A DNA stretch of 64,000 nucleotides from Escherichia phage HY02. The notes below the pieces were generated by a model that did not search any database, had not been told where the DNA came from, and saw nothing but the letters and a program-made list of their open reading frames with translations. Shown here piece by piece: positions 2,393 to 30,387 of the stretch (positions are counted from its first letter, which is position 1; each line of letters starts with the position of its first letter). The stretch lies in the sequence record KM092515; one strand, given 5' to 3'. A program made the translations under genes and the position numbers.

Positions 2393-2471
2393 AGTGTTTG
2401 ACAAGGGGCTTCAAAGCCCCTTAGAATAGCCTTACAAAATGATTTATTAACTAACAAGAGAGAGTAATAAG

Positions 2472-3581
2472 ATGACTACTAAAACTAAAGCACAGATTGA
2501 CGCAGAAATTTACAAACTGGTTAAAGAAGGTAAGCTGACTAAAACAGCTATTGCACAGAAATTTAATACTTCAACCCGTTCAGTTGGTCGTGCTGTAGAG
2601 CGTCATGAAGCAACCTTAAAAGGGAATAAGAAGGCGACTTCTACACCAGCTACGAAAACTTTGAAGCAAGTTGCTAAGACCTTTAAGAAGAAAGCTGGCA
2701 AACCAGTTGAAAAGGCTGTTAAAGAGTCTGTACAGAAAGCTCCGGTGAATAAACTGCATGAAGCTATGCAGAAAGATGACAAGATTGAGTACATGATTAC
2801 TGGTGATTCTGTAATTATGACTTATGGTTCAGAATCTGAAATTGTTGAGTCTACTCATCCGAACTATCAAGAGATTGTAGTTCATGTTGTGAAAGGTGAG
2901 TTCAAGAAAGCATTTGAACTGATGAACATTCGTAAGTCTATCGAAAACTTCACTCAGGGTGCTATCACAATCAAAGGCGACAAGCTATTCTACGGTGCTG
3001 TTGAGATGCGTTCTACTCTGGTTGACCGTATTCTTCACATGATGAAAACTGGCGATAAAGGTTTTGAACGACTTGTAATGTTCTTCGAAAAACTGATGGA
3101 AAACCCATCTAAAGATTCTGTAGAACAACTTTGGGGATTTGTATCTCACCTTGATGTTGAAATTGATGAGGAAGGCTACATCATTGGTTGGAAGAAAGTC
3201 TCTACTTGTGAAGGTAAGCTGGTTGACTCCCACACCTACAAAGTTCCTAACGATTTGGGTAACATTGTAGAGATGCCACGTTGGATGGTTGATAATAACC
3301 GTAACGTGACTTGCTCTCAAGGTCTTCATGTTGGTGCTTGGGATTATGTTCGCAGCTTCTCAGGTGATACAATCCTGAAAGTTCGTGTCCACCCACGAGA
3401 TGTTGTATCTGTTCCAACTGATTACAACGATATGAAGATGCGTTCCTCTCGTTATGAAGTTGCAGCAATCGTTGATAATCAACGTAAAGTGCTGGAAGCA
3501 TGGGACGGTAAGACTGAAGCTTTGCATGTCATCGTTGGCACTGCTGGTGAACTTATCTCTCAACGTAAACGTGAAATCTAA
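2472..3581 (+). CDS. hypothetical protein (possible rIIB-like partner, by position only)
   Basis: 369-aa ORF directly downstream of the rIIA-like gene with RBS-like AAGAGAG upstream; no motif recognised. Confidence 0.3.
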   Translation: MTTKTKAQIDAEIYKLVKEGKLTKTAIAQKFNTSTRSVGRAVERHEATLKGNKKATSTPATKTLKQVAKTFKKKAGKPVEKAVKESVQKAPVNKLHEAMQKDDKIEYMITGDSVIMTYGSESEIVESTHPNYQEIVVHVVKGEFKKAFELMNIRKSIENFTQGAITIKGDKLFYGAVEMRSTLVDRILHMMKTGDKGFERLVMFFEKLMENPSKDSVEQLWGFVSHLDVEIDEEGYIIGWKKVSTCEGKLVDSHTYKVPNDLGNIVEMPRWMVDNNRNVTCSQGLHVGAWDYVRSFSGDTILKVRVHPRDVVSVPTDYNDMKMRSSRYEVAAIVDNQRKVLEAWDGKTEALHVIVGTAGELISQRKREI

Positions 3582-8542: not shown

Positions 8543-8923
8543 ATGAAATATCGTGCGCCTAAATTCATCAACAAAGACAACTTTCGTAGCGTACTGGAGA
8601 AGTCACTTGATGAAAATTTCAAAGGTAATGTGATTGTTGTTCACTCGTTCAATTTTAAGTATGATATCAACGGGAATAAAATTAACCATTACACGGCAAC
8701 CATGTTAGATGGTACTCTTTCAAGTGAAAAAACAATTCTACATGCACTTGCTGGGCGTGGTAAAAACCTGATAAGCTGCAATAAGAGACGTTATCAAGGT
8801 GGCGCATATGGTTATGATGATGCTGTTTACCATCTTGAAAATATGGGCTATTCAGTGGAGAAAGCTGGAGCGTCTCAAATAATTGGTAGTGATGGTTATG
8901 TGACAATATTCAAAATTAACTGA
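8543..8923 (+). CDS. hypothetical small early protein
   Basis: ORF preceded by conserved leader with GGAG RBS. Confidence 0.65.
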   Translation: MKYRAPKFINKDNFRSVLEKSLDENFKGNVIVVHSFNFKYDINGNKINHYTATMLDGTLSSEKTILHALAGRGKNLISCNKRRYQGGAYGYDDAVYHLENMGYSVEKAGASQIIGSDGYVTIFKIN

Positions 8924-8937
8924 TAAAGTACTTTACA

Positions 8938-8966
8938 GGGGGCTTATAGTTCGATAAAGTAAGCCC
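8938..8966 (+). other. conserved intergenic hairpin (type B) GGGGCTTA...TAAGCCCC
   Basis: GC-clamped hairpin followed by AGATAAAGAGCTTTACC, not U-rich; four copies with compensatory loop changes. Confidence 0.5.
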
Positions 8967-9011
8967 CAGATAAAGAGCTTTACCACTAAATCCTAAATTG
9001 GAGATTCAAAA

Positions 9012-9302: not shown

Positions 9303-9316
9303 GAAAGTACTTTACA

Positions 9317-9346
9317 GGGGGCTTAAAAGTTGGTATCTTAAGCCCC
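9317..9346 (+). other. conserved intergenic hairpin (type B)
   Basis: GGGGCTTAA...TTAAGCCCC followed by AGATAAAGAGCTTTAC. Confidence 0.5.
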
Positions 9347-9387
9347 AGATAAAGAGCTTTACATAATCCTAAACTGGAGATTCAAAA

Positions 9388-10327: not shown

Positions 10328-10600
10328 ATGTATACTACTAACAACGGTCGTACTTTGAACGTAACACTGCGTCACTATGTGAATGGTGTAATGCACTTTG
10401 ATGATTTACAAGCTGAGCAACATATCTTAGATTGGCAAGTAGCAGGACTCCAAAAAACTGCTACAGGATACGGGAAAAAGATTCCAACTAGTTGGAAAGT
10501 ATACTATGAAGGACGTTTGCGCAGAATTTATCAAGATGTATGCAGTAATAGCGCATCAAGTTACATCATAGTAAAAGGTAAAAAACTGCATTTAGTATAA
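10328..10600 (+). CDS. hypothetical small early protein
   Basis: conserved type A leader upstream. Confidence 0.65.
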   Translation: MYTTNNGRTLNVTLRHYVNGVMHFDDLQAEQHILDWQVAGLQKTATGYGKKIPTSWKVYYEGRLRRIYQDVCSNSASSYIIVKGKKLHLV

Positions 10601-10612
10601 AGTACTTTACAA

Positions 10613-10641
10613 GGGGCTTATAGTTCGATAAAGTAAGCCCC
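10613..10641 (+). other. conserved intergenic hairpin (type B)
   Basis: GGGGCTTA...TAAGCCCC; near-identical to 8938-8966. Confidence 0.5.
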
Positions 10642-10685
10642 AGATAAAGAGCTTTACCACTAAATCCTAAATTGGAGATTCTAAA

Positions 10686-11197: not shown

Positions 11198-11401
11198 ATG
11201 GCTATTATTAACGGCTTAAACATTGAAACAACACACATCAAAGACATCAAAGTTGGTGATGTAGTCCTTTCCCACGGCGTAGAGAAAACTGTTACTGCAA
11301 AGGATATTAAAGAGGATTCTTTCATGGGTAGAACTCTCTTCGGTGATTCTTATTGCTTAGGTTATCTTGCAGTTTTAAAAGTTGTCAAAAATAATCGTTA
11401 A
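11198..11401 (+). CDS. hypothetical small early protein
   Basis: conserved type A leader upstream. Confidence 0.65.
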   Translation: MAIINGLNIETTHIKDIKVGDVVLSHGVEKTVTAKDIKEDSFMGRTLFGDSYCLGYLAVLKVVKNNR

Positions 11402-11413
11402 AGTACTTTACAA

Positions 11414-11442
11414 GGGGCTTAAAAGCTGATATCTTAAGCCCC
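11414..11442 (+). other. conserved intergenic hairpin (type B)
   Basis: GGGGCTTAA...CTTAAGCCCC. Confidence 0.5.
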
Positions 11443-11486
11443 AGATAAAGAGCTTTACCACTAAATCCTAAACTGGAGATTCAAAA

Positions 11487-23759: not shown

Positions 23760-25175
23760 ATGAGCGAGTTATTTAAACATGCGCACCTTCATGCAGGTCG
23801 AACTGAAAATGGTGCTGTAAACCATACTTCATCAATGTCTGCTCTGGTAGACTTCTACAAAGCCGCTGGTTCAAGCCGTAGCAATGTAGAAATCTTACCA
23901 GACCTGTTCTACAAAGCTTTGCGTGAGGATGTTGATGTTGCAGTTCGTATTTTACTGCATATGCGAGATGTACGAGAAGGTATGGGCGAGCGTAAAGCTT
24001 TCCGAACTGTTTTACTTCAAGCGATTGAAGATAAAGTTTTAGAACCTACACAGGTTCTTCGCATTATGGATAAGATTGTAGAACTTGGTCGTTTTGATGA
24101 CTTCAAAATCTTCGTAGGTACTCGTTTCGAGACAGATGCCTTCAAACATTTAGAAGCAGCATTACTAGACCCTGCAACAGCAGGTTTAGCAGCTAAGTGG
24201 TTACCACGAGTAAAACCACGCCACAAACAGTTTGTAAAACGTTTCTGCAAGTTTGCAAACTTAAGCGAGAAAGAGTACCGCACACTGTTATCTGCACTAT
24301 CTGATACAGTTGAACAAAAAATCTCTGCTAATGAGTTTGGTAAGATTGACTACAGTAAGATTCCTTCACTTGCTGCTGCACGTTACCAAAAGCTCTTTAA
24401 CCGCAAAGATGGAGAACGCTACAAAGCTTACATCGAGTCCTTATCAAAGGGTGAGGCTAAGATTAACGCTGGTGCTGTTTACCCATACGATGTGATTAAA
24501 TCTATTAAGTATGGTAATGCAGATGTTGCTAATGAGCAGTGGAAAGCACTTCCAAACTGGATGGCAGAAGGTGAAAACATCTTGTGTATGACTGATGTTT
24601 CAAGCTCAATGTCTTGGGTGAATCTTGGTTCAATCACTGCTCTGGATATTGGTGTATCACTTGCCTTGTATGTAGCAGAACGTAATACAGGTTGCTTTAA
24701 AGATGAGTTAATGGTTTATTCAACAAACCCTCATTTCATTGAACTGAGTGGTGATTTACGAAACCGTCATCGTCAGGTAATGCGTCATGTTGAATATGGT
24801 TCAACTAACTTACAAGCAGCTTTTGACCGTATTCTTGAGGTAGGCAAGAGAAACAACTTGACTCAGAAAGATATGCCAAGTAAGCTTATTATCTTCTCTG
24901 ATATGGAGTTTAATCAGGTTGATGGTGCAAATGGTCGTACAAACTTTGAAGCAATTCAGAGTAAGTACAAAAAAGCTGGATACGAAATGCCACAACTGGT
25001 ATTCTGGTACTTAGCAAACCGTAATGGTACTTGCGAAGTATCCGTTAAGGATAACGGTGTAGCAATGGTATCAGGGTTCTCTCCAGCAACTTTAAAAGCT
25101 CTGCTTGGTGGTGAGAAGTTTGACCCAATCAGCGTAATGCTTAAAGCAGTAATGATTGACCGTTATATCTGGTAA
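23760..25175 (+). CDS. rsr: Ro60/TROVE-like protein with C-terminal vWA domain (Rsr-like)
   Basis: vWA MIDAS motif DVSSSM (Ro60 has DVSASM); YPYDVIKSIKYG resembles Ro60 HPFHILIALETYK; FSDMEF resembles Ro60 FTDNET; C-terminal GFSPATLKAL resembles Ro60 GFDTGALDVI (from recalled Ro60 sequence, not a search). Confidence 0.65.
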   Translation: MSELFKHAHLHAGRTENGAVNHTSSMSALVDFYKAAGSSRSNVEILPDLFYKALREDVDVAVRILLHMRDVREGMGERKAFRTVLLQAIEDKVLEPTQVLRIMDKIVELGRFDDFKIFVGTRFETDAFKHLEAALLDPATAGLAAKWLPRVKPRHKQFVKRFCKFANLSEKEYRTLLSALSDTVEQKISANEFGKIDYSKIPSLAAARYQKLFNRKDGERYKAYIESLSKGEAKINAGAVYPYDVIKSIKYGNADVANEQWKALPNWMAEGENILCMTDVSSSMSWVNLGSITALDIGVSLALYVAERNTGCFKDELMVYSTNPHFIELSGDLRNRHRQVMRHVEYGSTNLQAAFDRILEVGKRNNLTQKDMPSKLIIFSDMEFNQVDGANGRTNFEAIQSKYKKAGYEMPQLVFWYLANRNGTCEVSVKDNGVAMVSGFSPATLKALLGGEKFDPISVMLKAVMIDRYIW

Positions 25176-25193: not shown

Positions 25194-25222
25194 TTGACAA
25201 TGTGTTTGATACCCTTTAATAT
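25194..25222 (+). promoter_or_regulatory. sigma70-like promoter upstream of the tRNA cluster
   Basis: TTGACA, 17-bp spacer, TAATAT; overlaps an inverted repeat AAGGGTAT...ATACCCTT. Confidence 0.5.
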
Positions 25223-25284
25223 GTTCTACATAGAAACGAAATGAGAGCTTTCCTAAGATACTGAAAAATATTTTAAAAAAGTTC

Positions 25285-25313
25285 TTGACAACCACTAAAA
25301 AATAATGTTAAAG
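25285..25313 (+). promoter_or_regulatory. sigma70-like promoter upstream of the tRNA cluster
   Basis: TTGACA, 17-bp spacer, TTAAAG. Confidence 0.4.
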
Positions 25314-25340
25314 TGGTTACATAGAGTTTGAAAAGTTTAT

Positions 25341-25417
25341 CTCTGTTTAGCTCAGCTTGGTAGAGCGTTCCGTTTGGGGCGGTAAGGCCGGAGGTTCAAG
25401 TCCTCCAACAGAGACCA
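25341..25417 (+). tRNA. tRNA-Pro (UGG)
   Basis: acceptor CTCTGTT/AACAGAG, T-arm GGAGG-TTCAAGT-CCTCC, encoded CCA; anticodon loop TTTGGGG. Confidence 0.55.
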
Positions 25418-25424
25418 AATTAAT

Positions 25425-25502
25425 GTTCCAGTAGACAAAATGGTATAGTCACCACTCTTTCAAAGTGGATATTTGAGGGTTCAAATCCATTCTGGAACGC
25501 CA
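25425..25502 (+). tRNA. tRNA-Glu (UUC)
   Basis: acceptor GTTCCAG/CTGGAAC, anticodon arm CCACT-CTTTCAA-AGTGG, TTCAAAT T-loop with imperfect T-stem. Confidence 0.5.
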
Positions 25503-25509
25503 GTTTTGA

Positions 25510-25582
25510 CAGAAGACCAATTACAGCAAACTTAATCTTATTCATCTGAAGGTAAATCGGACAAAGAAGAGATTTGGTCTGG
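25510..25582 (+). ncRNA. Y-RNA-like element 1 (stem-closed, no tRNA-like domain)
   Basis: 5' CAGAAGACC-AATT...ACAGCAAA and 3' ATTT-GGTCTGG can pair as a terminal stem. Confidence 0.4.
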
Positions 25583-25593
25583 TCATTAAGAAT

Positions 25594-25670
25594 TGCGGGT
25601 ATAGAGAAAGGGCGTCTCACATGTCTCATTAGCATGGTATCGGCAGGTTCGACTCCTGCACCCGCCTCCA
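25594..25670 (+). tRNA. tRNA with CAU anticodon (Met or Ile2), atypical D region
   Basis: T-arm GCAGG-TTCGACT-CCTGC, acceptor TGCGGGT/ACCCGCC with 1-72 mismatch, anticodon arm CATGT-CTCATTA-GCATG, encoded CCA. Confidence 0.4.
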
Positions 25671-25676
25671 ATTTTG

Positions 25677-25736
25677 CAGAAGACCGTATTCAGCAATAAA
25701 CTACTTTTTGCGGATAAAAGAAAAAACACGGTCTGG
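25677..25736 (+). ncRNA. Y-RNA-like element 2
   Basis: 5' CAGAAGACC-GTAT...TCAGCAA and 3' ACAC-GGTCTGG; stem bases co-vary relative to element 1. Confidence 0.4.
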
Positions 25737-25747
25737 CAACGTATTAA

Positions 25748-25821
25748 GGTTAGGAAGCACATGAGGTATGTGCGGTCGCCTGTTAAGCGAATGGCACAGG
25801 GTTCGAATCCCTGACTAACCG
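25748..25821 (+). tRNA. tRNA-Asn (GUU)
   Basis: acceptor GGTTAGG/ACTAACC, D-arm GCAC..GTGC, anticodon loop CTGTTAA, T-arm CAGGG-TTCGAAT-CCCTG. Confidence 0.6.
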
Positions 25822-25832
25822 CAAATTTAAAT

Positions 25833-25920
25833 GTGTCGTTATCCCGTAGATGGTAGCGGTGGGGACTGTAAATCCCTTGTCATTGAGACTCGGTAGGTTC
25901 GACTCCTACACGGCACACCA
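25833..25920 (+). tRNA. tRNA-Tyr (GUA), long variable arm
   Basis: acceptor GTGTCGT/ACGGCAC, anticodon arm GGGGA-CTGTAAA-TCCCT, T-arm GTAGG-TTCGACT-CCTAC, encoded CCA. Confidence 0.6.
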
Positions 25921-25981
25921 ATTTTGAGAGGGCTATTTAGCCCCTCCCTTAAAGGGTTCTTACGAGTATCCTTTAAAGGAG

Positions 25982-26054
25982 CAGAAGACCAAATACAGCA
26001 AGTTATTTAAAATTTCAAGCCAATTCAATTTTGAAAATTTAAAACTTGGTCTGG
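25982..26054 (+). ncRNA. Y-RNA-like element 3 (YrlB-like, no tRNA-like domain)
   Basis: 5' CAGAAGACC-AAAT...ACAGCAAG and 3' CTT-GGTCTGG; interior holds an AT-rich palindrome. Confidence 0.4.
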
Positions 26055-26067
26055 CTCAACAAATTTA

Positions 26068-26199
26068 CAGAAGACCGTTTACAGCAAAACTTAAACAATC
26101 TATTTCTCCGGTAAAGAAAAGGCGAAGGTTCGATTCCTTCACTCGGCAGATGTCGAGTTGGTGTAATGGTAGCACTTAAGATGATAAACAACGGTCTGG
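26068..26199 (+). ncRNA. Y-RNA-like element 4 (YrlA-like) with permuted tRNA-like domain
   Basis: terminal stem AGACCGTT/AACGGTCT; internally T-arm GAAGG-TTCGATT-CCTTC (26124-26140), acceptor-like helix ACTCGGC/GTCGAGT capped by AGAT (26141-26158), D-arm GTGT-AATGGTA-GCAC (26161-26175); T-arm precedes D-arm. Confidence 0.55.
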
Positions 26200-26204
26200 T
26201 AATT

Positions 26205-26339
26205 ATCTTTGTAGATAAGTTATTAAGCTTACCTGTGAGTATGCGACCACAAAGGTGAAAGGGTAAATTCTAGATTTAAACCCAAAAAGACACATCGCTA
26301 CAGACCTTAAGCAAGTCTGGGTAGCTTATCTACAAAGAT
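26205..26339 (+). repeat. structured element closed by a perfect 15-bp inverted repeat
   Basis: ATCTTTGTAGATAAG (26205-26219) and CTTATCTACAAAGAT (26325-26339) flank about 105 nt containing hairpin CAGAC-CTTAAGCAA-GTCTG. Confidence 0.5.
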
Positions 26340-26347
26340 AATTTAAT

Positions 26348-26423
26348 GGAAGTGTAGCAGAATGGTGATGCGGCAGACTTTTAATCTGACAGGCGATGGG
26401 TTCGAATCCCTCCACTTCTACCA
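26348..26423 (+). tRNA. tRNA-Lys (UUU)
   Basis: acceptor GGAAGTG/CACTTCT, anticodon stem CAGA/TCTG with loop CTTTTAA, encoded CCA; T-stem has two mismatches shared with the CUU paralogue. Confidence 0.5.
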
Positions 26424-26427
26424 ATAT

Positions 26428-26504
26428 GGTTCAGTCGCAGATAAGGTAATGCAAGGGTCTCATAAGCCCTATGAATGTGGGTTCGATTCCCATCTGAACC
26501 TCCA
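26428..26504 (+). tRNA. tRNA-Met (CAU)
   Basis: acceptor GGTTCAG/CTGAACC, anticodon arm AGGGT-CTCATAA-GCCCT, T-arm GTGGG-TTCGATT-CCCAT, encoded CCA. Confidence 0.65.
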
Positions 26505-26505
26505 A

Positions 26506-26581
26506 GCTGGTATAGTTAAGAAGGTTATAACACTCCCCTGATAAGGGAACATCGGTGGTTCGATTCCACCTACCAGTACCA
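26506..26581 (+). tRNA. tRNA-Ile (GAU)
   Basis: acceptor GCTGGTA/TACCAGT, D-arm GTTA..TAAC, anticodon loop CTGATAA, T-arm GGTGG-TTCGATT-CCACC, encoded CCA. Confidence 0.65.
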
Positions 26582-26596
26582 ATTTCAATAAAGTTG

Positions 26597-26625
26597 TTGA
26601 CATTGAGATGTGACTACTTTATAGT
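26597..26625 (+). promoter_or_regulatory. internal sigma70-like promoter within the tRNA cluster
   Basis: TTGACA, 17-bp spacer, TATAGT. Confidence 0.5.
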
Positions 26626-26828
26626 AACCTTAGTTTTCGTTGCGTAGCGTCTATTTTGCAAATTTAAAATAAATGCAAACGACAATGTTTTTCTGGCAGT
26701 AGCTTGATAGGCTAAACACCAGTGAGGTCTTCCAATCCCTCATCAAAGAATTTGGCGTACTCGCCCACGGTATGATTAATAAGGTGGGCATCTTTAAGGG
26801 CTTTCTAAGAGAGTCTTTAAAGATTAAT

Positions 26829-26905
26829 GCACCCTTAGTTCAATTGGATAGAGCAACGGTCTTCTAAATCGTTAGTTACAGGTTCGAATCCTGTAGGGTG
26901 TGCCA
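26829..26905 (+). tRNA. tRNA-Arg (UCU)
   Basis: acceptor GCACCCT/AGGGTGT, anticodon arm ACGGT-CTTCTAA-ATCGT, T-arm ACAGG-TTCGAAT-CCTGT, encoded CCA. Confidence 0.65.
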
Positions 26906-27047
26906 ATTAGTTAGCAGATTACTTAGACGACCTAAGCGGGTCTTCCTGTAGGGAGGTGGTCTGTATCTCATGTTTTCCAGAACATGTAAATAATCTGAGA
27001 AGGGGCTTTACAGTGTTGAGATAATACGGTAAGCTTCGAATTATAGT

Positions 27048-27130
27048 ATGGGACGATGTTAAGACTCTAAGGCATGAGCAACGGCCTCCAAAACCGTTTC
27101 AAAGGGGTTCAACTCCTCCGTCCCATGCCA
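27048..27130 (+). tRNA. tRNA-like gene, possibly Trp (CCA); oversized D region
   Basis: acceptor ATGGGAC/GTCCCAT, T-loop TTCAACT, anticodon-like loop CTCCAAA, encoded CCA; 83 nt and D-arm not foldable by eye. Confidence 0.35.
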
Positions 27131-27143
27131 AAGTCTTATTAGG

Positions 27144-27231
27144 GGTAGGTAGCGGCTAATGGTAGCCAAACTGTCTTGAAAACAGTTGCCACTGTAGAGA
27201 TACGGTGAGGGTTCGACTCCTTTACTTACCG
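27144..27231 (+). tRNA. tRNA-Ser (UGA), long variable arm
   Basis: acceptor GGTAGGT/ACTTACC, D-stem GGC/GCC, anticodon arm AACTGT-CTTGAAA-ACAGTT, T-loop TTCGACT. Confidence 0.55.
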
Positions 27232-27489
27232 CCTAATAAGATTTTAAAGCCAAGCTTCATTCGGATGTTGCTTTGGTATCCCTCGTGTATTGTCGTACAC
27301 ACTGATAAAACACCTAGTAGGTGTCACGGAGAAGAGATAATATCAAGCTCTCCAAAGGTTCTAGTCACCGGATTAAACAAGACTATGCAAAGGCCTTTTT
27401 AGGTCTTTTTAGAGGGCTTCTAAGGTTATTACGGCTTGTTGTGGAACCTTGTTGCTTAGGTTCTTAGAAGTTCTCTAAAAAGATTTAAT

Positions 27490-27567
27490 GGGAGATTGAC
27501 GGTAATTGGTAAACCTACCATCCTTAGAAGTTGGTGTTTGAGGGTTCGAATCCCTTGTCTCCCACCA
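27490..27567 (+). tRNA. tRNA with UAG anticodon (Leu-type) but short variable arm
   Basis: acceptor GGGAGAT/GTCTCCC, T-arm GAGGG-TTCGAAT-CCCTT, anticodon loop CTTAGAA, encoded CCA. Confidence 0.4.
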
Positions 27568-27574
27568 AATTAAT

Positions 27575-27650
27575 GCAGGTGTAGCAAAATGGTTATGCGG
27601 CTGACTCTTAATCAGTAAGACGATGGGTTCAATTCCCTCCACCTGTACCA
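27575..27650 (+). tRNA. tRNA-Lys (CUU)
   Basis: acceptor GCAGGTG/CACCTGT, anticodon stem CTGA/TCAG with loop CTCTTAA, encoded CCA; body paralogous to 26348-26423. Confidence 0.5.
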
Positions 27651-27656
27651 AACAAT

Positions 27657-27732
27657 GGGGTCATAGTTTATATGGTTAAAATTCGAGTTTTGCAAACTTG
27701 GGAACTGAGTTCAATTCTCAGTGACTCCACCA
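27657..27732 (+). tRNA. tRNA-Ala (UGC)
   Basis: acceptor GGGGTCA/TGACTCC, anticodon loop TTTGCAA, T-arm CTGAG-TTCAATT-CTCAG, encoded CCA. Confidence 0.6.
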
Positions 27733-27738
27733 ATTAGT

Positions 27739-27813
27739 GCATCCATAGTTTAAACGGGAAAATTACAGTCTTCCAAACTGAGGTTGAGGGTTCGATTCCC
27801 TCTGGATGCTCCA
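27739..27813 (+). tRNA. tRNA-Gly (UCC)
   Basis: acceptor GCATCCA/TGGATGC, anticodon stem CAGT/ACTG with loop CTTCCAA, T-arm GAGGG-TTCGATT-CCCTC, encoded CCA. Confidence 0.65.
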
Positions 27814-27820
27814 AATTAAT

Positions 27821-27896
27821 GCTCCTATCGTATAATTGGCTATTACGGTTGCCTTGTAAGCAACTTATCAGGGTTCGAATCCTTGTGGGAGCACCA
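27821..27896 (+). tRNA. tRNA-Thr (UGU)
   Basis: acceptor GCTCCTA/TGGGAGC, anticodon arm GTTGC-CTTGTAA-GCAAC, T-arm CAGGG-TTCGAAT-CCTTG, encoded CCA. Confidence 0.7.
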
Positions 27897-27993
27897 ATTT
27901 AGAGGTCAAGTGAAAGACCGCTTTGAGTCAACTGAAGACCGTAACAAATTCCACGGAGTTGAGTTAGCGGCACAACTTCAGACCTCTTTTCAC

Positions 27994-28068
27994 ACTCGCT
28001 TAGTTTATATGGTAAAACATCACCCTTACAAGATGAAGAAAAAGGTTCAAGTCCTTTAGTGAGTACCA
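27994..28068 (+). tRNA. tRNA-Val (UAC)
   Basis: acceptor ACTCGCT/AGTGAGT, anticodon loop CTTACAA, T-arm AAAGG-TTCAAGT-CCTTT, encoded CCA. Confidence 0.6.
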
Positions 28069-28069
28069 T

Positions 28070-28147
28070 GTTCCAGTATCCCAATTGGCAGAGGATGCAA
28101 GCTCAAACCTTGTACTAGTGACGGTTCGAATCCGTCTTGGAACACCA
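28070..28147 (+). tRNA. tRNA with CAA anticodon (Leu-type) but short variable arm
   Basis: acceptor GTTCCAG/TTGGAAC, anticodon arm GCAAG-CTCAAAC-CTTGT, T-arm GACGG-TTCGAAT-CCGTC, encoded CCA. Confidence 0.45.
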
Positions 28148-28152
28148 ATTTT

Positions 28153-28228
28153 GCAGGATTAGTTCAAATGGATAGAGCAACAGTCTACGAAGCTGTTAAT
28201 AGGGGTTCGAATCCCTTATCCTGCGCCA
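28153..28228 (+). tRNA. tRNA-Arg (ACG)
   Basis: acceptor GCAGGAT/ATCCTGC, anticodon arm ACAGT-CTACGAA-GCTGT, T-arm AGGGG-TTCGAAT-CCCTT, encoded CCA. Confidence 0.65.
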
Positions 28229-28247
28229 ATTTAAAGAGGCTATTTAA

Positions 28248-28805
28248 ATGAGATACTTGAAGTATGCTTCATGGATTTTCTTAGCTTTGCTAGAACCATT
28301 GGCAGCAATCTTAGCAGTTATCTTAGCACCTTTTGTAGTTCCATTTTACAGTGAGAAGAAAGGACACTTACCTTTTGGATTCAGATGGATGGAGACATAT
28401 GACAACCTGATTGATGGTGATGAAGGTCACGTTAAAAGATGGGCTAAGATTAGAAAGATTGGTAAGCTTGGTGTCTATTTGCAGAGAGTTGGATGGCTCT
28501 GGAGAAACAAAGCTTATAACTTCTCTTACCATGTGTTAGGAAGAGATGTAAAAGATGTTACTAAGTGGAAAGGTAATATCAACGTAAGTTCTGACCCTGA
28601 AGATAATCAGACAGGTTATCTCCTAATGTGGAACAGTAATGCTTGGGGATTATTCGCTTTTATCCCATCAATTAAAGTCTTTGGTAAACAATTCTACTGG
28701 AGAATTTATGTTGGATGGAAGCTAAAAAGTGTTGTCCCAGAAGAAAGAGCATTCTCAAGGGAAAGAGTTATGTTGGCATTCTTTATTCATCCACTGAGAA
28801 AGTAA
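28248..28805 (+). CDS. hypothetical membrane protein embedded in the tRNA cluster
   Basis: 185-aa ORF with N-terminal hydrophobic helix (IFLALLEPLAAILAVILAPFVVPF); lies between tRNA-Arg and tRNA-Gln. Confidence 0.5.
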   Translation: MRYLKYASWIFLALLEPLAAILAVILAPFVVPFYSEKKGHLPFGFRWMETYDNLIDGDEGHVKRWAKIRKIGKLGVYLQRVGWLWRNKAYNFSYHVLGRDVKDVTKWKGNINVSSDPEDNQTGYLLMWNSNAWGLFAFIPSIKVFGKQFYWRIYVGWKLKSVVPEERAFSRERVMLAFFIHPLRK

Positions 28806-28813
28806 AGATTTAA

Positions 28814-28889
28814 AGGGGATTAGTTTACAAGGTTAAAACCTCGGTCTTTGAAATCGAAGAAGTTGGTTCAATTCCAACATCCCCCGCCA
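28814..28889 (+). tRNA. tRNA-Gln (UUG)
   Basis: acceptor AGGGGAT/ATCCCCC with unpaired 1-72, D-arm GTTT..AAAC, anticodon arm TCGGT-CTTTGAA-ATCGA, T-arm GTTGG-TTCAATT-CCAAC, encoded CCA. Confidence 0.65.
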
Positions 28890-28891
28890 AT

Positions 28892-28970
28892 GCTCCATTA
28901 CTCCAATTGGCAGAGAGGCCAGACTTAAAATCTGTGTTATGTATCGGTTCGAATCCGATATGGAGTACCA
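28892..28970 (+). tRNA. tRNA with UAA anticodon (Leu-type), atypical architecture
   Basis: acceptor GCTCCAT/ATGGAGT (alternative TACTCCA/TGGAGTA), anticodon stem CAGA/TCTG with loop CTTAAAA, T-arm ATCGG-TTCGAAT-CCGAT, encoded CCA. Confidence 0.45.
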
Positions 28971-28975
28971 AATTT

Positions 28976-29051
28976 AGCGGTATAGCATAACTGGCAATGC
29001 AGCAGTCTCTGAAGCTGTCTTATTAAGGTTCAAATCCTTATGCCGCTGCCA
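28976..29051 (+). tRNA. tRNA-Gln (CUG)
   Basis: acceptor AGCGGTA/TGCCGCT (A1-U72), D-arm GCAT..ATGC, anticodon arm GCAGT-CTCTGAA-GCTGT, T-arm TAAGG-TTCAAAT-CCTTA, encoded CCA. Confidence 0.55.
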
Positions 29052-29082
29052 CTTCTAAGGATTCTTACGAGAGTCCTTAGAA

Positions 29083-29158
29083 GTGGCCTTATCATAAATG
29101 GTAATGACCCATGCTGTGAACATGGTCTATACGGGTTCAAATCCCGTAGGTCACCCCA
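29083..29158 (+). tRNA. tRNA-His (GUG)
   Basis: acceptor GTGGCCT/AGGTCAC, anticodon arm CCATG-CTGTGAA-CATGG, T-arm ACGGG-TTCAAAT-CCCGT, encoded CCA. Confidence 0.7.
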
Positions 29159-29163
29159 ATTTA

Positions 29164-29240
29164 TAGTCCAAGTAGCTTATATGGTTAAAGCGCGTGTCTG
29201 AAAAACATGAGAAGAGGGTTCAAATCCCACTGGACTACCA
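29164..29240 (+). tRNA. tRNA-Phe (GAA)
   Basis: acceptor TAGTCCA/TGGACTA, D-stem GCTT/AAGC, anticodon arm CGTGT-CTGAAAA-ACATG, TTCAAAT T-loop; spacing between acceptor and D-stem is non-canonical. Confidence 0.5.
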
Positions 29241-29256
29241 ATTTCAAAGGTGCTTA

Positions 29257-29991
29257 ATGAAAGAGATGACAGAACAAGGTAAGGAGATTTTTAATCTCTT
29301 AAAAACTGGTAAAGGGTTTTCTAACCCCCTTATTACTGGTGCAGCAGTTCTCGGTGGAACCGTAGCTGCCTCTACATCACTTGTAAGCTCTATTAGCTCT
29401 GTATCAGACCCTACAGTAAAGGATAAGCTTGTTGCTGCTGGACTTACAACAGTTCTGCTTAACAGCTTTACCACGAGTCTGACAAGCACTACATCAACTA
29501 CCAAAACACTAACAGATTACGGTCAAAAGTCCATTGATGAGTTTTCATCACGTATGCAGGTAGCAAAAGGTTACTCTAATGTTATGGGTGCAGCAGGTGA
29601 ACAAGTTGGCTGTACACCATTTAGTGGTATTATGGGTGTTGCTACAGAGTATGGTCAAAAAGCTATTGATACGATTAACAGTGCACTAGATAGTGTTAAT
29701 GGTGTGTTAAGTGACTTACAAGATGCTATTGACAAAGGTCTTGATACTATTTCTGATTTAGCTGAGCAAGCTGTTAGTAAGATTAATGAAGGTATTTCAA
29801 AAATTACAGCTTATGCAGATGAAGTTGTGCAGATGATTGAAGAAGAAGCTGCTCTTATTGCAGAGTACCTTAAAACGAATATCAATGGGTTCTTAGCAGG
29901 TATCTTACCAGACTGGTTTGATGATGCTTGTAAAACTGGTGTGATTGACACTATTGCAACACCAGAAATGAAGAACGCATTACAGAAATAA
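29257..29991 (+). CDS. hypothetical Ser/Thr-rich protein
   Basis: ORF track start 29194 overlaps tRNA-Phe; in-frame ATG at 29257 follows GGTGCTTA, the same context as the terminase start. Confidence 0.5.
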   Translation: MKEMTEQGKEIFNLLKTGKGFSNPLITGAAVLGGTVAASTSLVSSISSVSDPTVKDKLVAAGLTTVLLNSFTTSLTSTTSTTKTLTDYGQKSIDEFSSRMQVAKGYSNVMGAAGEQVGCTPFSGIMGVATEYGQKAIDTINSALDSVNGVLSDLQDAIDKGLDTISDLAEQAVSKINEGISKITAYADEVVQMIEEEAALIAEYLKTNINGFLAGILPDWFDDACKTGVIDTIATPEMKNALQK

Positions 29992-29992
29992 T

Positions 29993-30085
29993 GGAAGATT
30001 AACCCTAAAAGGTAAGGGAGCAGTTTGCTAAACTGCCAGTAGCTGAGAAATCGGTGTACCAGTTCAAGTCTGGTATCTTCCTCCA
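29993..30085 (+). tRNA. tRNA-Ser (GCU), long variable arm
   Basis: acceptor GGAAGAT/ATCTTCC, D-stem CCC/GGG, anticodon arm GCAGT-TTGCTAA-ACTGC, T-arm ACCAG-TTCAAGT-CTGGT, encoded CCA. Confidence 0.65.
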
Positions 30086-30089
30086 ATTT

Positions 30090-30165
30090 GAATCCGTGAC
30101 AGAAATGGCTATGTGCCTGTCTGCAAAACAGGTTTATAAGGGTTCGAGTCCCTTCGGATTCTCCA
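30090..30165 (+). tRNA. tRNA-Cys (GCA)
   Basis: acceptor GAATCCG/CGGATTC, anticodon arm CCTGT-CTGCAAA-ACAGG, T-arm AAGGG-TTCGAGT-CCCTT, encoded CCA. Confidence 0.65.
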
Positions 30166-30201
30166 AGTTATTTTACTCTCTCTCAATTAAAATAATAATA
30201 A

Positions 30202-30261
30202 TGCCCTGCTATAAGTATTCTTCCTTTCGCTACCGAAGAGTATTTTTAGACAGGGCTTTTT
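30202..30261 (+). terminator. compound hairpin terminator after the tRNA cluster
   Basis: outer stem GCCCTG/CAGGGC enclosing inner hairpin AGTATTCTTC...GAAGAGTATT, followed by TTTTTT. Confidence 0.5.
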
Positions 30262-30387
30262 TACAGAGTTATACTTTATAAGAAGCCTTATACAGTATGT
30301 CTCTGACGTACATTGTGGTTTCTCCTTGACGGTCTCTGTACCGTCTTTTTTAAGGGGGAACATGATTAATTATTTGGAGAAAACATA

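Follow-up and report, generated by a model that had tools for sequence, protein, structure and literature searches.

Putative unannotated RNA systems in the tRNA gene cluster of Escherichia phage HY02: a tmRNA-like RNA without a tRNA half and Y-RNA-like candidates behind a Ro60-like gene

The tRNA gene cluster of phage HY02

Felix-O1-like phages are widely used in typing and therapy. The DNA analyzed here, 64,000 nucleotides (nt) of Escherichia phage HY02 (KM092515; called the window throughout), contains the transfer RNA (tRNA) gene cluster of a phage of this kind (Felixounavirus, Ounavirinae), in which ARAGORN finds 25 plus-strand tRNAs between 25341 and 30165. Over 4.9 kb the cluster is 96-97% identical to the E. 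coli phages Shy, VpaE1 and many more. Between and ahead of the tRNAs this DNA appears to hold two unannotated RNA systems. One is an RNA in the first gap that resembles transfer-messenger RNA (tmRNA) and carries a tag reading frame without a tRNA half, the other a set of small RNAs behind a gene for a predicted Ro60-like protein. The original prediction had described recurring hairpins and four gaps free of open reading frames (ORFs), and had proposed that they are processing sites or additional small RNAs. The borders of these gaps (gap 1, 26582-26828; gap 2, 26906-27047; gap 3, 27232-27489; gap 4, 27897-27993) agree with the tRNA boundaries given by ARAGORN, and the small inverted repeats quoted for them are present. 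Overlapping mechanical ORFs of 30-65 amino acids (aa) exist there, none of them conserved, so that the description as ORF-free is true in substance.

Between 25200 and 30300 the two top sigma-70-like sites lie just 5' of the first tRNA and inside gap 1 (26597-26625, listed below). A scan for terminator-like sites (a G+C-rich stem followed by a U tract) found none on the plus strand inside the cluster and none at any of the hairpins.

25285-25314, plus strand: promoter-like site ahead of the tRNA cluster (TTGACA-18-TAAAGT, TG upstream, 10/12 match)

A tmRNA-like RNA in gap 1

Gap 1 contains the following elements.

26597-26625, plus strand: predicted sigma-70-type promoter of the tmRNA-like RNA (TTGACA-17-TATAGT, 11/12; best site in 25200-30300)
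26632-26824, plus strand: tmRNA-like RNA without a tRNA-like domain (~190 nt), 5' end AGUUUUCGU
26675-26704, plus strand: tag frame ANDNVFLAVA (10 codons), stops at 26705-26710
26693-26696 and 26719-26722, plus strand: stop-enclosing helix (CUGG/CCAG), stop codons in the loop
26723-26742, plus strand: internal hairpin of the tmRNA-like RNA, covarying
26756-26761 and 26769-26774, plus strand: CGYACU/GGURUG helix, covarying

The resume and tag site reads AUAAAU-GCA AAC GAC AAU GUU UUU CUG GCA GUA GCU UGA UAG, with a hairpin just upstream of the GCA. With its threshold lowered, ARAGORN recognizes both the resume consensus and the tag, and the Rfam model of permuted tmRNA aligns AUAAAUGCAAACGA.AA.GUUU at high posterior probability, with a total score far below the cut-off. 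An in-frame stop (UAG in the window) precedes the tag frame, with no ATG, GTG or TTG in between, in the two lineages that were read. Compensatory changes were found by RNAalifold in three helices, namely the stop-loop helix, the internal hairpin and the CGYACU/GGURUG helix. An H-type pseudoknot with a GCCC/GGGC stem was seen by eye only.

The tmRNA searches returned no complete molecule. ARAGORN calls no tmRNA in the window or in five loci from Taipeivirus, Kuttervirus and Klebsiella phages (L003-L007), there is no T arm in the Pollock and HK620 units, and the Rfam tmRNA models (RF00023 / RF04321) give 12-29 bits against a cut-off of 47. At E<=0.01 Rfam yields no match in the HK620, Pollock, E. 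coli prophage and SSU5-like loci, and no family covers the element in any locus tested. The calls that ARAGORN makes at lowered threshold, or in the related locus L024, borrow pieces of neighboring tRNAs or of a tRNA mimic. The "permuted tmRNA" called in L024 joins the tRNA mimic, tRNA-Lys and the tag, and was rejected as a single gene because three tRNAs and a promoter lie between.

In blastn comparisons the gap-1 core is shared at 70-80% identity with phages that are unrelated to Felixounavirus. Homologues occur in Ounavirinae, Ackermannviridae (Kuttervirus, Taipeivirus), Roufvirus, SSU5-like phage-plasmids, HK620, Drexlerviridae-like Klebsiella siphoviruses of 45-50 kb, and Schitoviridae (Pollockvirus and other N4-like phages). 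Altogether 626 phage records from at least seven phage groups carry a member of the family, as do 411 of 5426 complete E. coli genomes (~8%), where it sits in lambdoid prophages (in the one inspected, between Q and S) and in plasmids of ~110 kb. The HK620 copy lies between pR'/qut and the late terminator tR'. A scan of species-representative genomes with the tag pattern gave four true matches, all in Enterobacterales, and one chance match. Annotation at the homologues consists of the entry 'none' or of a spurious small ORF, and literature searches on phage tmRNA-like or ssrA-like RNA or on DUF2828 found nothing relevant and no description of the element.

The tag frame itself seems to be under selection. 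We collected 18 distinct tag versions, which follow the pattern AN[DE]xx[FYV]L[AM][VA]A. Codons 1-3 vary at the third position only, and TGA, TAA and TAG all occur at codon 11. Pairwise codon differences in the tag frame are synonymous in 263 of 703 cases (263 synonymous vs 440 non-synonymous), compared with 17 of 649 (17 vs 632) and 40 of 600 (40 vs 560) in the other two frames.

Several GenBank records list hypothetical proteins in the gaps, and mechanical ORFs of 46-65 aa do run over gaps 1, 3 and 4. Yet on neither strand does the gap-1 family keep an ORF open throughout, nothing conserved corresponds to the 46-aa minus-strand translation, the relatives of gap 3 differ by insertions and deletions (indels) of 1, 2, 4 and 5 nt, and one of the ORFs begins inside tRNA-Ser. 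We find it hardly credible that the gaps are small protein-coding genes. For gap 1 the other reading frames, a normal start codon and the 46-aa minus-strand ORF were considered and rejected.

A more serious objection is that the gap-1 element might be a decaying fragment of a captured ssrA gene, a pseudogene that hitch-hikes with tRNA cassettes. It has no tRNA-like domain and stays well under the Rfam tmRNA cut-offs. Relative to other families the Felixounavirus version has lost 16 nt from the region of the upstream hairpin, the copy of phage Shy is frameshifted, and the element often lies near tRNA-Arg(UCU) or other tRNAs. Decay is nevertheless difficult to reconcile with a length, helices and a 10-codon frame plus stop that are kept in at least seven phage groups through compensatory and synonymous changes. 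The 5' end AGUUUUCGU is also conserved, and in several other families promoter-like hexamers can be recognized by eye just 5' of GUUUUCG. Since E. coli ssrA is not among the blastn matches of the element, the copies are not recent captures. We consider a relic very unlikely, and conclude from the sequence comparisons that the gap-1 element most probably is a real, selected, tmRNA-derived RNA without its tRNA half.

Some further observations concern the surroundings of the family members. The loop of the internal hairpin 26723-26742 (GAGGUCUUCCAAUCCCUC) resembles the anticodon arm of the adjoining tRNA-Arg(UCU) at 26855-26871 (ACGGUCUUCUAAAUCGU). In ten related loci (L014, L018, L019, L020, L026, L028, L029, L032, L036 and L037) the slot of this tRNA-Arg(UCU) (26829-26905) holds a tRNA-like gene without a D arm, which keeps the UCU anticodon arm and bears the alanine identity set on its acceptor stem (G3·U70 and A73-CCA). 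Covariation (G-C / U-A) is seen in the anticodon stem. ARAGORN does not call this gene, whose role may be that of a recoding tRNA or, beside the tag RNA, of a tmRNA-type acceptor module. The tmRNA-like RNA of two Kuttervirus loci (L005 and L006, locus 600-2500) lies in a stretch of ~2 kb without annotated genes that contains several T-arm-like elements, including a mini tRNA-like element without an anticodon arm ~140 nt upstream. In the Taipeivirus locus (2896-3110) an above-threshold Rfam match to the enterobacterial small RNA STnc100 (51.6 bits) was found ~1.3 kb from the tmRNA-like RNA. Two Klebsiella phages (L004 and L007, ~2400-3100) carry a gene for a TnpB-type RNA-guided endonuclease ~0.9 kb downstream of the tmRNA-like RNA; a capsid or tail gene lies in between, and the two are probably unrelated.

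A Ro60-like gene followed by scaffold RNAs

Upstream of the gaps a second set of elements is found.

23760-25175, plus strand: Ro60-like protein gene (471 aa; Pfam DUF2828 and DUF7788; PHROG 850 'RNA-binding protein')
25508-25584, plus strand: scaffold RNA A, GAC-AGA-AGACCAA-UUACAGCAA ... UUGGUCU-G-GUC
25675-25738, plus strand: scaffold RNA B, UGC-AGA-AGACCGU-AUUCAGCAA ... ACGGUCU-G-GCA
25980-26056, plus strand: scaffold RNA C, AGC-AGA-AGACCAA-AUACAGCAA ... UUGGUCU-G-GCU
26066-26201, plus strand: scaffold RNA D with a tRNA-like domain (T arm 26126-26142, closed 7-bp acceptor-like stem 26143-26164, D arm 26167-26181)

The product of the 23760-25175 gene is predicted to have a Ro60-like fold. 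Its AlphaFold2 (AF2) model has a predicted local distance difference test score (pLDDT) of 84.9 and a predicted template-modeling score (pTM) of 0.86. The nine best PDB matches returned by Foldseek, 2i91, 9kop, 9l5y, 2nvo and 1yvp among them, are all Ro60/TROVE proteins aligned over the full length (E 1e-7 to 4e-6, query template-modeling score (TMq) 0.47-0.66), and one of the nine is a phage Ro60. Model and matches place a HEAT-repeat ring before a C-terminal vWA domain, the architecture by which Ro60 is recognized, and the DVSGSM motif (DxSxS, MIDAS) of the latter is invariant in 32 homologues. At the sequence level phmmer against the PDB sequences found nothing at E<=1, and Pfam TROVE is not among the matches of the ORF, which are DUF2828 and DUF7788 only.

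The ORF ends 330 nt before the first of four RNAs that share CAGAAGACC-N5-CAGCAA ... GGUCUGG, all of them inside the cluster and more numerous than in any of 100 shuffles. This scaffold folds into an outer helix of 3 bp and a second helix of 7 bp, with an A-N-A/R (AGA/G) internal loop between them, followed by a single-stranded WUWCAGCAA. In an alignment of three phage groups 98% of the scaffold cells pair, compared with 17-43% when the partner strand is slid, and 7 of 10 pairs change on both sides across these groups. RNA D differs from the other three by its additional module. Its minimum free energy fold is a cloverleaf with a partial Rfam tRNA match, and among 13 variants 95.3% of the cells pair and three acceptor-stem pairs change on both sides. 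The closed stem occurs there in three alternative sequences, all paired. T and D arms are invariant, and the acceptor stem is closed by AGAU, UACG or GCCAAACA according to lineage, with CCA encoded in the loop in one of them.

The same order of gene and RNAs is seen in Yersinia phage P778 and in a 143-kb phage contig, with a promoter-like site between the Ro60-like gene and the scaffold RNAs in one of them and tRNAs in the other. The scaffold RNAs of both have the same architecture with different helix sequences, and the contig has two further mimics composed of T arm, closed stem and D arm. In Vibrio phage phi-pp2 no non-coding stretch adjoins the Ro60-like gene. The exact scaffold motif occurs in 119 stretches in IMG/VR, and its paired 3' partner only in Felixounavirus contigs. 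Because of the synteny, the scaffold RNAs are probably the partners of the Ro60-like protein.

The hairpins of the cluster

Three recurring hairpins had drawn attention to this DNA. All three are present within 1-2 nt of the positions first given (hairpin 1, for example, extends from 25948 to 25979, its end having been given as 25980). In sequence they form a family to which a longer, fourth member has to be added (hairpin 4), and a short G+C-rich hairpin (hairpin 0) precedes them. Energies are from RNAfold and z-scores are relative to dinucleotide shuffles.

25925-25947, plus strand: hairpin 0, short and G+C-rich, 3' of tRNA-Tyr (-11.6 kcal/mol, z = -3.4); conserved in relatives, no U tract after it
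25946-25981, plus strand: hairpin 1, UACG apex (-14.8 kcal/mol, z = -3.5)
26790-26824, plus strand: hairpin 2, UAA triloop (-16.0 kcal/mol, z = -4.0)
27398-27489, plus strand: hairpin 4, 26-bp outer stem (-37.7 kcal/mol, z = -7.1); ends 1 nt before tRNA-Leu
29048-29087, plus strand: hairpin 3, 18-bp stem (-30.4 kcal/mol, z = -9.2)

The 11-12 nt that were originally taken as shared TTCTTACGAG / CTAAGAGAG loops do not form loops in RNAfold and are mostly base-paired. What the hairpins have in common is a paired apex, YU-UACG-AG, on stems of 15-18 bp (hairpins 1-3), capped by a UACG tetraloop in hairpins 1 and 3 and by a UAA triloop in hairpin 2. Hairpins with this apex are also present in the tRNA clusters of an Erwinia Kolesnikvirus and of the Yersinia phage. 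Over the whole window the heptamer TTACGAG is not enriched (8 observed vs 7.8 expected). Dispersed repeats of the repetitive extragenic palindrome (REP) or miniature inverted-repeat transposable element (MITE) type were not found, both the hairpin family and the scaffold motif being confined to the tRNA cluster of the window. Among the inverted repeats of the window hairpins 4, 3 and 2 rank 2nd, 6th and 20th. A second, unrelated inverted-repeat family of 23-39 nt (AAAGTACTTTACARGGGGCTTAA / TTAAGCCCCAGATAAAGAGCTTT) has four copies elsewhere (8908-8998, 9304-9360, 10598-10656 and 11399-11457).

Conservation in related genomes had been suggested as a check, and the hairpins are indeed kept in ~20-25 related loci. 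One pair of hairpin 1 varies between G-C, G·U and A-U, hairpin 2 changes from C-G to U·G and from G·U to G-C with pairing preserved, and hairpin 4 changes from U-A to G-C, with two pairs altered on both sides. In hairpin 3 the CCA end of tRNA-Gln is paired to the start of tRNA-His. This tRNA-His (29082-29158) has A instead of G at -1, opposite C73, and the Shy record flags its copy as a pseudo-tRNA.

It might be argued that the palindromes act as DNA, as recombination junctions or protein sites at which tRNA and homing-endonuclease cassettes are shuffled. The flanks are indeed variable: hairpin 2 is followed by tRNA-Arg or by the D-armless tRNA-like element, hairpin 4 by two alternative sequences, tRNA-Asp is present or absent beside hairpins 0 and 1, and HNH ORFs are inserted nearby in relatives. 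Hairpins 2 and 4, however, depend on G·U pairs that turn into C·A on the other strand, and lose most of their stability there (hairpin 2 from -16.0 to -4.1 kcal/mol, z = -0.06; hairpin 4 from -37.7 to -24.6 kcal/mol). This dependence and the strand asymmetry argue for RNA on the transcribed strand and not for a DNA palindrome. Furthermore, the substitutions pass through G·U intermediates and the hairpins occur nowhere but on the transcribed strand of the cluster, which makes a role as DNA highly improbable.

In other Ounavirinae lineages and in other families a longer helix, ..UAAGAGCA...UGCUCUUU.., stands where hairpin 2 is found. By this comparison hairpin 2 is the 3' terminal helix of the tmRNA-like RNA and no independent spacer element.

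Other conserved stretches and variation of the cluster

The remaining features of the cluster are listed here.

26201-26344, plus strand: long hairpin RNA with a 24-bp outer stem, before tRNA-Lys (-46.0 kcal/mol, z = -5.8)
26906-27047, plus strand: gap-2 RNA (-39.9 kcal/mol on the plus vs -22.3 on the minus strand)
27048-27130, plus strand: atypical tRNA-Trp (CCA) with a 3-bp D stem and a 14-nt D loop, read from the sequence and not called by ARAGORN
27234-27397, plus strand: small hairpins of gap 3 (GUGUAUUGUCGUACACAC, CACCUAGUAGGUG and others), present and conserved; indels are not multiples of 3
27897-27993, plus strand: gap-4 RNA closed by AGAGGUC/GACCUCU (-29.9 kcal/mol, z = -3.6)

Relatives conserve the stretch 26201-26344, gap 2, gap 4 and the first part of gap 3, all of which fold better than shuffled sequences. 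For 26201-26344 the outer stem is kept with a different sequence in L024, as judged by eye, and the alignable copies are near-identical. Gap 2 has 24 variants of at least 87% identity with 3 non-canonical cells in 910 and no double changes, and gap 4 has 18 variants of at least 92% identity and no covariation. The atypical tRNA-Trp, for which Rfam gives 23 bits only, and these to tRNA-Sec, has a homologue in the Yersinia phage. In one relative (L049) its anticodon stem is changed from ACGG/CCGU to UAAG/CUUA, fully compensated, and L019 and L028 have a standard tRNA-Trp plus an HNH-type ORF in its place.

The gaps could in principle be discarded precursor spacer, with the hairpins serving as RNase III or RNase E signals that separate the tRNAs. 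Hairpin 3 fits this well, lying exactly between two tRNAs with the CCA of tRNA-Gln in one arm and the 5' bases of tRNA-His in the other. From T7 and rRNA it is established that stems of 18-26 bp suit RNase III. Since there is no internal plus-strand terminator, the whole cluster would be made as one or two long precursors, and gaps 2-4 show no covariation. As an account of the whole cluster, spacer is nonetheless unlikely: gap 1 has its own near-consensus promoter and a codon-like substitution pattern, its RNA occurs in unrelated phages without an adjoining tRNA (HK620, Pollock), the scaffold RNAs covary across genera, and hairpin 2 is part of a larger conserved RNA.

The tRNA cluster is built as a mosaic of cassettes. 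Shy and VpaE1 have a tRNA-Asp(GTC) after tRNA-Tyr and a ~63-nt element between tRNA-Asn and tRNA-Tyr, both missing from the window (at 25920-25921 and 25822-25833, respectively). Cys-rich HNH-type ORFs are inserted beside alternative tRNAs in L019 and L028 (about 390-770 nt 3' of hairpin 2) and in L032. Two protein genes are embedded in the cluster, 28248-28805 (DUF7338) and 29194-29991 (DUF7217), with no function assigned.

Interpretation

The best joint explanation of these data, to which we assign a probability of roughly 60%, is that the non-tRNA stretches are a battery of plus-strand structured RNA genes, co-transcribed with the tRNAs from the promoter-like sites at 25285 and 26597. The comparisons themselves show conserved RNA structures of the plus strand, with covariation in hairpin 4, the gap-1 RNA and the scaffold RNAs. 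Each of the rival explanations fits some features, and none of them jointly accounts for the cross-family conservation, the strand asymmetry and the codon pattern. Of the two proposals in the original prediction, that of additional small RNAs is supported by comparative evidence, and reaches beyond what was first supposed, for gap 1 (tmRNA-like), for the stretch after hairpin 1 (Y-RNA-like) and for 27048-27130 (tRNA-Trp), and gaps 2-4 are conserved only. A reading as processing sites is plausible only for hairpin 3 and perhaps for hairpin 4.

As RNA genes, the gap RNAs might be released when RNase P and the 3'-trimming enzymes excise the adjoining tRNAs. The recurring long hairpins would then be the terminal stems of the non-tRNA modules: hairpin 4 may close the gap-3 RNA and hairpins 0 and 1 precede the Y-like RNAs, with hairpin 3 standing alone as a zipper between tRNA-Gln (3' end) and tRNA-His (5' end). 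Terminal hairpins that end 1-6 nt 5' of the next tRNA likely block 3' exonucleases and thereby shield the upstream RNA. The stems of 18-26 bp may also offer an RNase III site. In terms of length, hairpins 1 and 2 have stems of 15-16 bp, hairpin 3 of 18 bp and hairpin 4 of 26 bp, where the reference for RNase III is about two turns of double-stranded RNA.

A number of points weigh against the RNA-gene interpretation. The gap-1 RNA has no tRNA-like domain in cis, neither by ARAGORN at normal or lowered threshold, nor by the Rfam tmRNA models, nor when the compact HK620, Pollock and ZCKp20p units are read directly, and we know of no mechanism that translates a tag frame without one. The unit in Pollock is ~290 nt long and ends in its own terminator. 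A 1-nt deletion in a T run breaks the frame in Shy and changes the tag to ANDNVFWQ*, which is either a homopolymer sequencing error or a broken copy. Part of the tag alignment comes from pattern searches in which some codon positions were fixed, which inflates the apparent constraint outside codons 1-6, so that the evidence from the synonymous excess is strongest for codons 1-6. The scaffold segments of the pairing test were cut out by hand. These RNAs lack the Ro-binding motif GNCGAAN0-1G (their 5' strand is NNC-AGA-AGACC, or GC-ACA-GGACU in the Yersinia phage) and are therefore filed as a Y-RNA-like variant and not as YrlA; neither a Y-RNA family nor a ribozyme is among the Rfam matches in the cluster, and it is the absence of the former that counts here. 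For gaps 2-4 and 26201-26344 the relatives are 87-97% identical, too little divergence for a test of structure. The 18-bp stem of hairpin 3 is perfect in the window and has two lower-stem mismatches in most relatives, and the roles of the hairpins as exonuclease blocks or RNase III sites are ones that we infer.

How could a tag frame without a tRNA half be used? It is thought that tmRNA needs its tRNA half to deliver the reading frame. Since the substitution pattern of the frame is of the translated type, we take it to be decoded by a trans-translation-type route, in which a tRNA-like partner, host tmRNA/SmpB or another RNA, might act in trans. The invariant 5' end AGUUUUCGU(UG) can pair with nt 94-106 of E. 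coli ssrA (ACGACGAAAACU), where codons 2-6 of the host tag lie, and in six of seven family members this duplex has 9-11 bp and -12 to -14 kcal/mol. Full-length RNAduplex predictions of the family against ssrA were uninformative, and the consistent site comes from the 5' 14 nt only. One could imagine a free-standing phage tag template that works with host tmRNA-SmpB, and whose docking on ssrA would mask the host frame and present that of the phage. With what the sequence offers, we rate this specific scheme as distinctly unlikely. If it were true, the tag put on rescued proteins during infection or lysogeny would be the one specified by the phage (...LAVA or ...LMAA), or, alternatively, trans-translation would continue after defense nucleases have cut the host template.

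More generally, a selected tag frame without a tRNA half would point to a new way of feeding a template into ribosome rescue, or to manipulation of rescue by phages, and such a template would be present in hundreds of enterobacterial phages, prophages and phage-plasmids. Through a protein family that is filed as DUF2828, the Ro60-like gene and the ACAGCAA-scaffold RNAs would bring Felix-O1-like and other phages into the range of Ro60/Y-RNA systems. Annotation would gain as well, as such regions are now left blank or given spurious small ORFs.

Comparison with known systems

The tRNA cluster of phage T4 encodes stable small RNAs that are not tRNAs (species 1 and 2, or band C and D RNAs), which are co-transcribed with the tRNAs and released by tRNA-processing enzymes. 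T4 is unrelated to Felixounavirus, and its small RNAs are not known to have a tag frame or a link to Ro60.

RNase III hairpins in the early and late transcripts of phage T7 and in rRNA operons are imperfect stems of ~20 bp between functional units of a polycistronic RNA. Hairpin 3 of most relatives, with its internal mismatch pair, resembles the T7 sites. Unlike RNase III sites, hairpins 1-3 share a UACG-capped apex that is conserved across genera and not required by the enzyme.

With one-piece and permuted tmRNA the gap-1 RNA shares the GCA resume codon after AUAAAU and the upstream hairpin, and its predicted fold puts the stop codons in a helix loop and structured helices downstream. Its tag, AN[DE]xx[FY]LAVA, is similar to the E. 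coli tag ANDENYALAA, and by our own count one family member has 24 of 33 nt in common with the latter. In contrast to tmRNA, it has no acceptor stem, T arm or CCA, its own promoter lies just 5' of the tag region, it can end in its own terminator, and the tag ends in AVA or MAA and not in LAA. It is also carried by phages, prophages and phage-plasmids of Enterobacterales and not by the chromosome next to smpB.

The Class I RNAs of Dictyostelium also have a short terminal stem followed by CUUACAGCAA. Matches to this family (RF01414) reach 19.7 bits for RNA A (25515-25581) and 24.4 bits for RNA B (25682-25735) with a cut-off of 41.5. Class I RNAs belong to a eukaryotic lineage, and we take the likeness to be a chance convergence of a short motif.

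The closest comparison for the scaffold RNAs is with YrlA and related Ro60 systems. YrlA RNAs have their genes no more than about 4 kb from that of a Ro60 orthologue and on its strand, and their tRNA-like module has T arm, closed acceptor stem-loop and D arm in that order (Chen et al. 2014, PMC4201824). Thermus phage phiLo has a phage Ro60 with the adjacent Y-like RNAs Yrl1/2 (PMC12135203). The scaffold RNAs of the window differ from YrlA in that their conserved parts are the A-N-A/R loop and the single-stranded WUWCAGCAA, with no CGAA, in that they are embedded in a tRNA operon, and in that three of the four copies are without a tRNA-like module. As in the YrlA/Ro60 systems, however, they are small RNAs encoded on the same strand within ~1 kb of a gene for a predicted Ro60 fold, and a stem interrupted by an internal loop forms between their 5' and 3' ends. 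RNA D goes furthest in this direction, with T arm, closed acceptor stem-loop and D arm in the same order as in YrlA, a variable arm in addition, and an acceptor stem of 7 bp, as in the RNase-P-cleaved YrlA of M. smegmatis.

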